Source: Candidatus Thorarchaeota archaeon
GTDB taxonomy: Archaea > Asgardarchaeota > Thorarchaeia > Thorarchaeales > Thorarchaeaceae
Direction: 5' to 3'
Assembly: GCA_016840855.1 (NCBI GenBank)
Contig: JAEORO010000069.1
Span: 1-64,000, forward strand
DNA length: 64,000 bases
The notes under the pieces are model-generated. The model had not been told where the DNA came from. It did not search any database and was given only the letters and a program-made list of their open reading frames with translations. Shown piece by piece: positions 49,806 to 57,078 of the stretch. How positions within the stretch are numbered: the first letter of the stretch is position 1; each line of letters starts with the position of its first letter. The translations under genes were made by a program, and so were the position numbers.

Positions 49806-50234
49806 TCAAACTGATACGTGTTCGATTACGACTCTTTGAACTCCATCAAGAACCTTGAGAGAACTCTCTAATTCATTTATGTCTGAGCTAAGTTGTCCAG
49901 GGTTAAAGTAACACTCGTAGAAACATCTTGTTCCTCGGAGACACACTCCCGTTGAGAATAAGAGATCAACGAGACCTGCTCTTTTGAATATTTGAGAGAG
50001 TTTGGTCAAGAAGTCATTTGTGAGCTTTCCAATCTCAAGACTCAGAAATAATACTTCGTCACTCTCTAAAGGAAATATCTTAATGAGTCGGTCCTTGTGC
50101 ACTAGCACCATCAGACCTTGACCAGTTCCCATGGCGTTTTTAAAAGCCTTAGGAAATTTTACGGTTTCACTTTCATCAAAAACTAGTACTTTTCCGGCGG
50201 TTGCACCTTCATAGGTTTCGTCTGACATCAGCAT
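49806..50234 (-). CDS. Hypothetical protein, possible C-terminal ACT-like domain
   Basis: ATG at 50234 after GGAG; beta-alpha-beta-beta-alpha-beta pattern ending LKVLDGVQRVVI. Confidence 0.6.
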   Translation of the reverse strand: MLMSDETYEGATAGKVLVFDESETVKFPKAFKNAMGTGQGLMVLVHKDRLIKIFPLESDEVLFLSLEIGKLTNDFLTKLSQIFKRAGLVDLLFSTGVCLRGTRCFYECYFNPGQLSSDINELESSLKVLDGVQRVVIEHVSV

Positions 50235-50353
50235 TTGTCTCCGTAGCGAAATCCTGCTGATGTAAGTCCTCAAACTCGTTAATAAGTAAATCTCTACTGT
50301 TTGGTCTGATGTGTGGTCCTTTTGTATTGTAATCAAAAACAATACTTTGACCT

Positions 50354-50626
50354 ATGATGAGGCTGTCAGAAATAGAAAAAGGCCCTTATTATGATATGAG
50401 AGAAGTATCAGAATTGAGAATACAGTATCAATGCGAATATCGCCTGCTTCTGAAACAACAGTTTGGAGAATCTCATTCATCTAAGAGCATTACTGGAACA
50501 AAATTACATCAGCGTGTTGCACTTGTAGATAATAATCAAAATTTCAAAAGAAATGAAATTCAACTTCTGCCTCTATTGGTAATCATACTTACTTTGATTA
50601 TTGGCATCTTCTGGATCTTCGGGTGA
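50354..50626 (+). CDS. Cas4-like N-terminal fragment with C-terminal TM anchor
   Basis: VSELRIQYQCEYR (first Fe-S Cys) and GTKLH (Cas4/RecB motif I); tail LLPLLVIILTLIIGIFWIFG. Confidence 0.7.
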   Translation: MMRLSEIEKGPYYDMREVSELRIQYQCEYRLLLKQQFGESHSSKSITGTKLHQRVALVDNNQNFKRNEIQLLPLLVIILTLIIGIFWIFG

Positions 50627-50630
50627 TTTC

Positions 50631-51287
50631 ATGAGTGATCTGATCAGCCTTCTTATGCTCATGTTATTTCTCTTTGGAATTCTTCTTCTTGTGAGAGATC
50701 TAAGAACTGGTTTCATCACAATTGGAATGAAGATAAAATACGCAAGTCCAGCGCAATTTAGCCTGTCAGAATTTCTCAAAATGGATTCAAGCCAAGAGAG
50801 GCTCATTAAGTATTATTACTTCTCAGAGGAAAATGTGAAGTCATTGGGTCACCGCTATACTGGAAGATTTGATGGAGGAATTCTCCATTGGGAAGAGACT
50901 GCAATATTGGATCTTGTAATAGAGTACAAATTTCCTACATTGTATCTCCCAAAACAGGCAAGGTTAGAGGATGTCTTTCAACTGGAACTCTATGCCCTTG
51001 CACTCCATGAATGTGGTATTTCATGTTCTTCAACAATTCTTGTAACAATTTACTGTCTTCAAGAGAATGCAGAGAGATGCATGAGTAAGAAATCATTCAG
51101 AGACTGCTGGCGATGCAATGCTGGAAGAAAATTCACAACACGATTCAAGCCTAAGAGAGTGTTGAAAGAACTGAAGAGATTGGATGAAATTTGGTATCAT
51201 GGGAGAAGACCAAAGCCTACCAAAGACGCAAATCGCTGTAGGATTTGTCCATATAGCCGCGGTAAGTGCAATTTTTCATCTGTATGA
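50631..51287 (+). CDS. Cas4-like PD-(D/E)XK nuclease C-terminal part with N-terminal TM anchor
   Basis: GRFD, IEYKF, QLELY and terminal CRICPYSRGKC. The ATG at 50631 follows a GGTGA that contains the upstream stop. Confidence 0.8.
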   Translation: MSDLISLLMLMLFLFGILLLVRDLRTGFITIGMKIKYASPAQFSLSEFLKMDSSQERLIKYYYFSEENVKSLGHRYTGRFDGGILHWEETAILDLVIEYKFPTLYLPKQARLEDVFQLELYALALHECGISCSSTILVTIYCLQENAERCMSKKSFRDCWRCNAGRKFTTRFKPKRVLKELKRLDEIWYHGRRPKPTKDANRCRICPYSRGKCNFSSV

Positions 51288-51354
51288 ATCTTGATACTAG
51301 AGGGATACAGCAACACAGACCTTTTTTACCTCATAGACTTTACTGAAAATTGCC

Positions 51355-51771
51355 ATGGTTCATTCATTAACAAGACTTCTTACGCATGTGATGACTGCAA
51401 AGAGAGACCTCAAACGTGTTTACTATACCAGCCGTAACCAAGATGCAAAACTAGATTCAAAGGAACTTGTTGCAGCTACAATTACACTCCAGAAGCTACT
51501 TGAAGACCTCATAGCGAAACGTCGAACAATCAGGGTAGCCAAGAAGATATTGGAGGACAAGAAAGCGGAACTGAATCTTCGTCAGTGGGCAATTGGATTT
51601 CCGCGGCGTGTTAGAGATTTCCTCTCAAAATCAAAGAAGCTAGAACAGCAGCATCTTCGTAAATATCAGCAAGCACTCTTGGAATATATCAATAACATAA
51701 GCACAGAACTTACTAAATGGATAGAGGATATTGAAACTCTAAGAGGAATGCCTCATCCACCAAAGGGATAG
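51355..51771 (+). CDS. Hypothetical basic all-helical protein
   Basis: 138 aa, K/R-rich, heptad-like pattern. Confidence 0.7.
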   Translation: MVHSLTRLLTHVMTAKRDLKRVYYTSRNQDAKLDSKELVAATITLQKLLEDLIAKRRTIRVAKKILEDKKAELNLRQWAIGFPRRVRDFLSKSKKLEQQHLRKYQQALLEYINNISTELTKWIEDIETLRGMPHPPKG

Positions 51772-56469: not shown

Positions 56470-57078
56470 ATGACGCAGAGAATTGATACTTCAGAAACCA
56501 TATCTGACACAGACACGTCCGATGGCTTTGAAGGGTACAAGTTTCGTGTGGTCCTACTAGGAGAGGCAGCCGTTGGGAAAACATCGCTTGTAAGGAGATA
56601 TACTGAGAACGTCTTTGATGAAGAGTATAAACAGACCATTGGAACTACATTCGCGACAAAAGACATTGATGTGACAGATAGCGAGGGCAGTATTCGTAAG
56701 GTTCGTTTGAACGTTTGGGATATGGGTGGTCAATCAACATACAGAGAACTTCGAAGGCAATTCATGAAAGGTGCGTCAGGTGCCATCATTGTATATGACG
56801 TTACACGTCCTGAAACATTCATGGCAATGAACAATTGGTTTGAATCGTTCAGAGAGGTTTGTCCTGCTTCGCCTGTTATCATTAGTGCTAACAAGATTGA
56901 CCTCGCCGATCAAAGGATGGTCCCTCAGGAACCTGGATTGATGCTTCGCGATTGGTTCCAAGCGGAGTATTTTGAAACTTCAGCAAAAACTGGCGACGAG
57001 GTAAACAATGTGTTTACTCGTATTGCAGAGGTTGTTCTGGGAAAGGCTCTATCAGAAGCTAAAGGTCCTTTGATGTAG
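56470..57078 (+). CDS. Rab-like small GTPase
   Basis: G1 GEAAVGKTS, G2 TIG, G3 WDMGGQ, G4 NKID, G5 ETSAKTG. Confidence 0.93.
   Translation: MTQRIDTSETISDTDTSDGFEGYKFRVVLLGEAAVGKTSLVRRYTENVFDEEYKQTIGTTFATKDIDVTDSEGSIRKVRLNVWDMGGQSTYRELRRQFMKGASGAIIVYDVTRPETFMAMNNWFESFREVCPASPVIISANKIDLADQRMVPQEPGLMLRDWFQAEYFETSAKTGDEVNNVFTRIAEVVLGKALSEAKGPLM

Follow-up and report, generated by a model that had tools for sequence, protein, structure and literature searches.

The window analysed here is a stretch of 64,000 nucleotides (nt) of contig JAEORO010000069.1, from the metagenome-assembled genome (MAG) GCA_016840855.1 of a Candidatus Thorarchaeota archaeon. It contains two short neighbouring genes, here called A and B, whose products are likely to be the two subunits of a single membrane-tethered DNA nuclease of the EXO5/Cas4 type, an iron-staple PD-(D/E)XK enzyme. 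To our knowledge, the iron-staple nucleases (Cas4, EXO5, Dna2, and AddB) are soluble proteins of one chain, with the cluster pinning the two ends of the fold. The split into two genes is real and old, and A and B have been kept as a pair across the Thorarchaeota family to which the window belongs; judging from their sequences, the enzyme probably has to be assembled from two proteins at the inner face of the membrane. The features that carry this argument are the following:

50354..50626, plus strand: gene A, an open reading frame (ORF) of 90 amino acids (aa), putative tail-anchored subunit
50396..50509, plus strand: residues 15-52 of A, a predicted helix segment with the candidate first cluster cysteine C27 (50432-50434) and motif-I histidine H52 (50507-50509), identified by hhalign and conservation
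50564..50620, plus strand: residues 71-89 of A, predicted C-terminal membrane helix, followed by a single residue; mean Kyte-Doolittle hydropathy (KD) 2.95
50622..50626, plus strand: GGTGA Shine-Dalgarno (SD) site for gene B, identified by sequence, which includes the TGA stop of gene A
50631..51287, plus strand: gene B, an ORF of 218 aa from the ATG at 50631, with a predicted N-terminal membrane helix and nuclease core
50637..50693, plus strand: residues 3-21 of B, predicted N-terminal membrane helix, N-out/C-in by charge; KD 2.74, helix 3-24 in the AlphaFold2 (AF2) model
50871..50993, plus strand: catalytic motifs of B, D81 (GRFD, motif II), E98-x-K100 (motif III), and Q117-xxx-Y121, identified by sequence and conservation
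51054..51116, plus strand: family-specific insert of B with C142, C150, C159, and C162, a possible second metal site, identified by conservation
51237..51269, plus strand: C-terminal cysteine triad of B, C203-xx-C206-x6-C213, three of the four predicted iron-sulphur (Fe-S) ligands, aligned with the CxxCx5C of single-chain relatives and human EXO5

The TGA of gene A (50624-50626) is followed by 4 nt and then by the ATG of gene B, which runs to a stop codon at 51285-51287 in the +1 frame relative to gene A. The frame of B is open upstream as far as a TTG at 50601, overlapping the end of gene A, but the start conserved among orthologs is the ATG at +4 and not this TTG. The true start of gene A may be a second ATG, at 50357, because orthologs open with MRL or MKL. 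GGTGA is found no more than 14 nt from the start of B in 36 of 49 loci, and the last codon of gene A is NGG in 40 of 49, the encoded residue being glycine, tryptophan, or arginine; since NGG is kept while the residue differs, selection acts on the RNA. The anti-SD sequence was read from a family member (G339), because this MAG and three other genomes (G001, G346, and G370) gave no 16S rRNA match; the 3' end of the 16S rRNA of G339, ...GGATCACCTCCT, pairs with GGTGA. Of 60 long ORFs in the window, 7 have GGTGA at -16 to -3 relative to their first ATG, where 0.7 would be expected. Genes A and B are translationally coupled.

A separate observation concerns the 16S gene of G339 itself (L082:1403-1501, minus strand). 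The Rfam small-subunit rRNA match ends at 1501 and the terminal GGATCACCTCCT lies at 1403-1414, so that about 86 nt of unrelated sequence, possibly an intron, stand near the 16S 3' end.

The +1 frame of B, together with its openness from 50601 across the end of gene A, is what would be expected of one gene in which sequencing or assembly introduced a frameshift, or which a recent mutation turned into a pseudogene. However, Logan contigs of three sequencing runs from three studies (X7, X9, and X12) span 50600-50640 with no inserted or missing letters; the contigs of a further run, X11, break off at 50624 and 50613, short of crossing the junction. All 15 loci of the genus have gene A directly upstream of gene B, with stop, 4 nt, and start, the stop of A being TGA in 14 of them and TAA in one. 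The layout is identical in 19 of the 20 loci with named records; the other, L034, has a frameshifted A and TGA, 5 nt, and ATG. Removal of duplicates left 50 unique loci from 13 genera; gene A adjoins gene B in 49 of them and shares an ORF with it in none. Among 31 metagenome loci a separate A is present in 30, a fused form in none, and one has no upstream DNA. A HMMER search of 1.84 billion representative sequences with the B profile returned 33 proteins at E ≤ 1e-3. Of these, 21 reach E < 1e-30 and have lengths of 112-252 aa, and thus a fused form of about 310 aa is not among them. The gene A profile found no match among longer proteins, which is weak evidence. 

Selection tells the same way. 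Compared with the closest ortholog, L016, a pair that is not saturated (dS 0.18-0.74), the ratio of nonsynonymous to synonymous substitution rates (dN/dS) amounts to 0.13 in A and 0.26 in B; in seven neighbouring genes it lies at 0.016-0.076. Both genes are therefore well below 1 and under purifying selection, and both evolve several-fold faster than their surroundings. With the stop and restart repeated throughout the loci, independent contigs free of an indel, and a conserved ATG and SD site, the probability of a broken gene is practically nil. The initial annotation had placed the start of B 4 nt past the stop of A, behind a GGTGA that contains this stop, and had pointed to reads at 50600-50640 and to conservation of the split as the places where its account might fail; coordinates and sequence agree with it, the contigs of three of the four independent runs show no indel, and the separate A recurs in the genome and metagenome loci just described.

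Programmed frameshifting or stop read-through would instead make the junction a recoding site, its product being one chain that carries a membrane hairpin. In keeping with such a mechanism, the genus has a constant +1 offset and, the one TAA apart, a constant TGA, and in two loci from two genera (L075 in G349 and L076 in G345) A and B share a frame with TGA and 2-3 codons between them. Across the family, however, 27 unique loci have B at an offset of +1, 20 at +2, and 2 at 0 with an intervening stop, and the spacing ranges from -31 to +26 nt, exact gaps depending on the start-codon heuristic. In addition, a start codon and GGTGA precede B, the RNA at the junction folds no better than shuffled sequences (z -0.21), and no Rfam element was found at the junction. 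A frame offset that varies while stop and restart stay constant argues against both error and programmed frameshifting, and recoding has a very slim probability.

The evidence that A and B belong to one domain comes from single-chain relatives. In hhalign comparisons, residues 15-58 of A align with positions 33-76 of single-chain Exo5-like proteins (94% probability, E 1.5e-7) and residues 60-218 of B with positions 94-252 of the single-chain proteins (99.2%, E 3e-19), colinear with the match of A. Colinear matches on the same proteins indicate that A and B together make up one EXO5/Cas4-type iron-staple domain, which in these alignments is split after motif I and before the first core strand. 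The relatives (P0144-P0152 and Asgard L089-L094) are archaeal 'solo' nucleases of the Exo5/PDDEXK_1 type, about 246-290 aa long, and those of 246-268 aa belong to the weak tail of the search of representatives with the B profile. They share with A and B, in this order, the motifs (V/I)S.(L/I)..Q..CE, G..(L/I)H, G(R/K)xD, ExK, QxxxY, and CxxCx5C. In contrast to A and B, they consist of one polypeptide and, P0144 apart, lack the four-cysteine insert; this insert is missing from all six Asgard single-chain proteins examined, whereas P0144 has one at the same position as in B. The N-terminal cysteine is present in five of these six, and none of the six has a membrane-like segment (maximum KD 0.82-1.42).

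Longer forms also exist in f9, another Asgard family, where G183 (L091:625-2292) and similar ORFs of 540-560 aa encode single-chain relatives to which roughly 300 aa are added at the C-terminus. In L091 the N-terminal cysteine is lost, with FYSE in place of YCE.

The soluble part of A carries R16-V-S-E-L-R-I-Q-Y-Q-C27-E-Y-R and G48-T-K-L-H52. Q24, C27, G48, and H52 are invariant in 47 of 47 unique A sequences, and pairwise identity is 53% in the motif region, against only 11% in the linker, residues 53-70. Gene B carries GRFD (D81), E98-Y-K100, Q117-LEL-Y121, and C203-RI-C206-PYSRGK-C213, as well as the four further cysteines in the pattern Y-C142-x7-C150-x8-C159-W-R-C162. Its core has a pairwise identity of 58%, and D81, E98, K100, D114, Q117, and Y121, the insert cysteines C142, C150, C159, and C162, and the triad C203, C206, and C213 are all invariant in 50 of 50 unique B sequences. 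The motifs that the initial annotation had listed in both genes are all present as it described them, and the four extra cysteines to which it drew attention in B are among these invariant residues.

In the AF2 model of B alone, the mean predicted local distance difference test score (pLDDT) is 77.6, and residues 205-218, which include the cysteine triad, fall below 50. The top Foldseek matches of this model are Cas4 8d3l, MGME1, EXO5, and SSO0001: 8d3l_J has E 1.8e-4 and a template-modelling (TM) score of 0.42, EXO5 E 3.8e-3 to 8.6e-3, and SSO0001 (4ic1) E 1.1e-2. The RecB-like fold that characterises Cas4 thus appears in B, as far as the model of B goes.

These data also bear on whether B might be a nuclease in its own right, with A a mere small membrane partner (an anchor, regulator, or chaperone) outside the fold and the active site. 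Motifs II and III and QxxxY are all on B, mutants of the cysteines of Cas4 keep their activity (PMC4176176 and PMC12501428), and in two genomes (G396 and G397) the frame of B is open even though A is cut by a TnpB-like element. Against this, the soluble part of A shares homology with the Cys/His segment at the N-terminus of the single-chain relatives, its C27 and H52 do not vary among the A sequences, the cysteine triad is poorly modelled when B stands alone, and A and B have been lost together in two other genomes (G394 and G011). A self-sufficient B is accordingly improbable.

Both products are predicted to be anchored in the membrane by a single helix. Means of KD over 19 residues were used, for which the usual membrane threshold is 1.6; outside the two helices the maximum is -0.26 in A and 1.41 in B. 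In the genus, the tails of all 15 A sequences reach 2.55-3.23 and the heads of all 15 B sequences 2.63-3.32, and across the family the minimum is 2.25 for 47 of 47 A tails and 1.98 for 50 of 50 B heads. The one transmembrane helix per product proposed in the initial annotation is hence conserved, above the threshold in every A and B sequence. In all 47 A sequences the layout is that of a tail-anchored protein, with the one predicted helix right at the C-terminal end and an N-terminus that lacks a signal sequence.

The hydrophobic helices might alternatively not span a membrane but form a greasy zipper that joins a soluble heterodimer. Insertion has hydropathy as its only support, and the sequences of the helices are poorly conserved (24-33% pairwise identity). 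Against the zipper, membrane spans typically show KD means such as the 2.0-3.3 seen here over 19 residues, lysine and arginine residues lie on the side of the helices that faces the soluble domain, and the helix of A has the terminal position of a tail anchor. The zipper seems decidedly improbable, and two membrane-anchored subunits are the preferred reading.

The nearest relatives of A and B are, by sequence comparison, Exo5/PDDEXK_1-type single-chain nucleases and human EXO5, and not CRISPR Cas4 proper. The single-chain relatives match the Pfam families PDDEXK_1 and Exo5; on Exo5 (PF09810) they score 22-31 bits, three of six above the cut-off of 25 bits. A profile of the single-chain relatives matches human EXO5 at E 1.2e-13, covering the N-terminal ...CE... 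and G..IH, and SSO0001 at E 3e-3. The B profile reaches only E 1 with EXO5, and the link of A and B to PF09810 is transitive, through the single-chain relatives. EXO5 is a nuclear or mitochondrial enzyme, characterised by [4Fe-4S]-dependent 5'-3' exonuclease activity on single-stranded DNA (ssDNA). Like the proposed enzyme of A and B, it is an iron-staple nuclease with N- and C-terminal cysteines (PF09810; human structures 7LW7-7LWA), and unlike A and B it is soluble, single-chain, and eukaryotic. Its [4Fe-4S] cluster links N- and C-terminal cysteines next to the ssDNA channel, as described in PMC8710748.

Cas4 (PF01930/TIGR00372; SSO0001 4IC1, type I-C 8D3L, and the M. mazei Solo-Cas4) likewise combines RecB motifs with one plus three cysteines, but as a soluble single chain. 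Cas4 families are described, in PMC4176176, by RecB motifs I-III, QhXXY, and one N-terminal and three C-terminal cysteines. In our pair, motifs II (D) and III (ExK) and QhXXY are found in B, their residues invariant, whereas the four cysteines are not in one polypeptide: A-C27 and B-C203/C206/C213 are on two chains. The iron-staple signature, Cys-x(n)-CxxCx5-6C, is present and invariant, spread over these two chains. The initial annotation had regarded the pair as a split Cas4-like iron-staple nuclease. The part that stands is the two halves of one PD-(D/E)XK domain, with Cys/His on A and the motifs and three cysteines on B; the part that shifts is the kinship, which is closest to the Exo5 type. 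The doubt it had voiced about gene A is answered by the match of the N-terminal Cys/His segment to single-chain Exo5-like nucleases, at the probability of 94% given above.

A Cas4 of CRISPR adaptation that strayed from its locus would explain why the Joint Genome Institute (JGI) has named some B orthologs as Cas4 and why PADLOC Cas4 models match B (model PDLC01250 with residues 51-139, E 3.5e-8). However, Cas1 occurs in 19 of 86 family genomes and the pair in 70 of 86; for the 27 genomes of the genus the counts are 1 with Cas1 and 23 with B. There is no Pfam match to Cas1 or Cas_Cas4 in the MAG, which is 92% complete, and no tandem repeat or repeat array in the window, so the absence of cas genes and of a CRISPR array that the initial annotation had recorded for the window holds. 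Given also the Exo5-type kinship, a stray Cas4 is barely credible.

Database records add little to this picture. Gene A has 125 database relatives of 70-105 aa, all named ones being 'hypothetical protein' of Thorarchaeota, and no meaningful match in Pfam. Gene B has 243, the best 120 of which are 185-235 aa long, and is recorded as 'hypothetical protein' or sometimes, from JGI, as 'CRISPR/Cas system-associated exonuclease Cas4'. The protein P0081 in the protein atlas links only to its own cluster and to PDDEXK_1 clusters, and PHROGs gave no match for A or B. In the literature, no paper describing a split or membrane-anchored Cas4 or EXO5 was found, although the supplements of PMC5704561 and Figure S1 of PMC4176176 might list such forms; in the main text of PMC5704561, a phylogenomic study of Cas4, 'transmembrane' and 'split' do not occur and 'membrane' occurs once, in an unrelated sense.

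Several points weigh against the proposed two-subunit nuclease. The match of gene A is short (44 columns, at 94% probability), and neither A nor B attains the curated cut-off of any family or matches PF09810 (Exo5) or PF01930 (Cas_Cas4) at E ≤ 1. B scores 15.5 bits (E 0.018) on PDDEXK_1 (PF12705), below the gathering cut-off of 22, and 17.3 bits on TIGR00372, below the cut-off of 65; of the 77 sequences in alignment A4, only 9 match PDDEXK_1 at E ≤ 0.01. The equivalence of A-H52 to the motif-I histidine, His62 of SSO0001, is inferred from position and motif only. Membrane insertion and topology are read from hydropathy and charge alone. Finally, the cluster may be only structural, by analogy with Cas4, whose cysteine mutants often stay active.

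Only one Thorarchaeota family has the pair. In the genus, matches to B occur in 20 of 24 other genomes; by profile, B is found in 69 of 85 family genomes, against none of 314 genomes searched in other families of the phylum. In these 314 genomes, 12 full-length single-chain relatives (E 1e-39 to 1e-56) and one truncated one were found; single-chain relatives are thus sporadic among other Asgard families. In the Thorarchaeota family, only the gene B part matches the single-chain profile, and no single-chain copy was found in this MAG. In a tree of 44 B sequences (the unique loci with a genus label, which excludes L016, L030, and L032-L035) and six Asgard single-chain sequences, the branch separating the two sets is supported by 100/100. 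The 14 group labels (13 genera and the single-chain group) require 13 changes, which is the minimum, compared with 30.6 after shuffling, and this points to vertical inheritance. Since the six Asgard single-chain proteins lack these traits and the separating branch has full support, the predicted membrane helices, the split, and the four-cysteine insert arose in the stem of the family. GC content at the pair (0.355-0.39, against 0.35-0.45 nearby) is not atypical.

The locus is syntenic in the 20 loci with named records, several of which run off the end of their contig. The genes come in the order inositol-1-phosphate synthase, CpXC, a VTT-domain membrane protein, up178, A, B, dn138, an eRF1-family protein, and PheRS. 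Because dn138 adjoins up178 also in genomes without A and B, dn138 is not part of the unit. Such empty sites, with up178 and dn138 adjacent and nothing between them, are found in genera g28 (three genomes, 96-99% complete) and g16 (one genome). In G394 (L084:898-1095), a stub of A of about 56 residues remains, its histidine lost, and there is no B; in G011, from the genus of the window (L095:1159-1401), both genes are deleted and about 19 codons of A are left. These two are independent deletions of the pair, with remnants of A between conserved neighbours. In G397 (L063:30-1412) and G396 (L062:250-420), a TnpB-like gene with a Cas12f1-like TNB domain (PF07282, E 4e-13) ends inside A, of which the last 18-52 codons remain, and the frame of B is still open. 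A is frameshifted in G348. Three further genomes of the genus have neither B nor dn138, which means that the locus is merely missing from their assemblies. The repeated losses indicate that the pair is dispensable and that both genes share the same fate.

Several features of the surroundings were recorded alongside:

49806..50342, minus strand: up178, probable start 50228
50229..50353: divergent intergenic region of 125 nt between up178 and A, nearly invariant in the genus, with TATA-like ATATAAGT and CCTTTTGTAGG
51310..51329, plus strand: conserved AACACAGACCTTTTTTAC motif between gene B and the next gene, a putative T-run terminator and/or TATA box of the next gene
51355..51771, plus strand: dn138
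56470..57078, plus strand: gene for a small GTPase of the Ras/Roc/Arf family (PF00071, E 4e-45)

The flanking genes up178 and dn138 are among the most conserved of the locus, with up to 99% and 93% identity, respectively, to the nearest species, and neither has a sequence match in Pfam or the PDB. In the genus, 12 of 14 loci have a run of at least five T no more than 110 nt past the stop of B; the remaining two have TTTATA and TTTAAA. Small GTPases of the Ras/Roc/Arf family are typical of Asgard genomes.

The proposed assembly would proceed as follows. A would insert as a tail-anchored protein (N-in/C-out) and B as a signal-anchored one (N-out/C-in), and their two helices would pair in the membrane like a hairpin cut at its outer turn, with the soluble parts of both proteins in the cytoplasm on short, variable tethers. 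One Fe-S cluster would be bound across the subunit interface by A-C27 and B-C203/C206/C213. A-H52 would complete the Mg/Mn site of B-D81 and B-E98, and B-K100 and Q117/Y121 would complete a metal-dependent nuclease acting on ssDNA or DNA ends. The four-cysteine insert of B would be the site of a second metal: Zn in a structural role, or a further cluster.

The metal ligands of SSO0001 are His62, Asp99, Glu113, and Ile114, and cysteine mutants of several Cas4 proteins lose the cluster and still cut DNA (PMC4176176, and for the mutants also PMC12501428). Because such mutants still cut, it is not safe to conclude from the cluster alone that the enzyme would be 'active only when stapled'. The invariant A-H52, if it is the metal-binding histidine that its position suggests, is a better argument than the cluster for an activity that needs both subunits.

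Our guess is that the enzyme trims or destroys DNA present at the membrane. Of the candidate roles, none more likely than not, the first is, by analogy, that it acts on entering foreign DNA in a spatial defence of the kind known from SNIPE; a role in membrane-associated repair or replication-end processing, as in EXO5, comes somewhat behind, DNA uptake or export a little further back, and the remaining odds go to something else. Uptake and defence, which the initial annotation had put forward, are thus guesses still. In E. coli, a membrane nuclease that cuts entering phage DNA does exist: SNIPE acts at the cytoplasmic membrane, where location picks out the entering DNA, according to the abstract of PMC13190303. 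This precedent differs from A and B in that SNIPE is bacterial, a single protein, unrelated in sequence as far as tested, and has no Fe-S cluster mentioned in that abstract, and the analogy is functional only.

The faster evolution of the pair relative to its neighbours, its repeated loss, and the SNIPE precedent speak for defence. Other observations speak against it: the pair was not found in viral contigs, it has a fixed syntenic place among housekeeping genes, its tree follows the genera with the minimal 13 label changes, and no defence neighbours were found at the locus. In EXO5, Dna2, and Cas4, the ssDNA tunnel is closed by a covalent chain. A more elaborate and rather improbable variant is that in A and B the Fe-S cluster would be a reversible clasp, the nuclease existing only as long as the cluster is whole and thus being redox- or iron-gated, and that the tunnel would open between the subunits and load DNA without a free end; the enzyme would then cut entering DNA as a form of Asgard innate immunity, with location as the self/non-self rule in the manner of SNIPE.

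In this family, an iron-staple fold in two pieces, each with its own predicted membrane anchor, has been kept through the family's whole history. If A and B assemble as proposed, they would provide an inter-subunit Fe-S site in a nuclease, and a natural membrane-tethered DNA nuclease, related to EXO5, in the archaeal group closest to eukaryotes. As two small proteins, they would offer a simple system in which to study the function of the cluster in this enzyme class and DNA transactions at the archaeal membrane.

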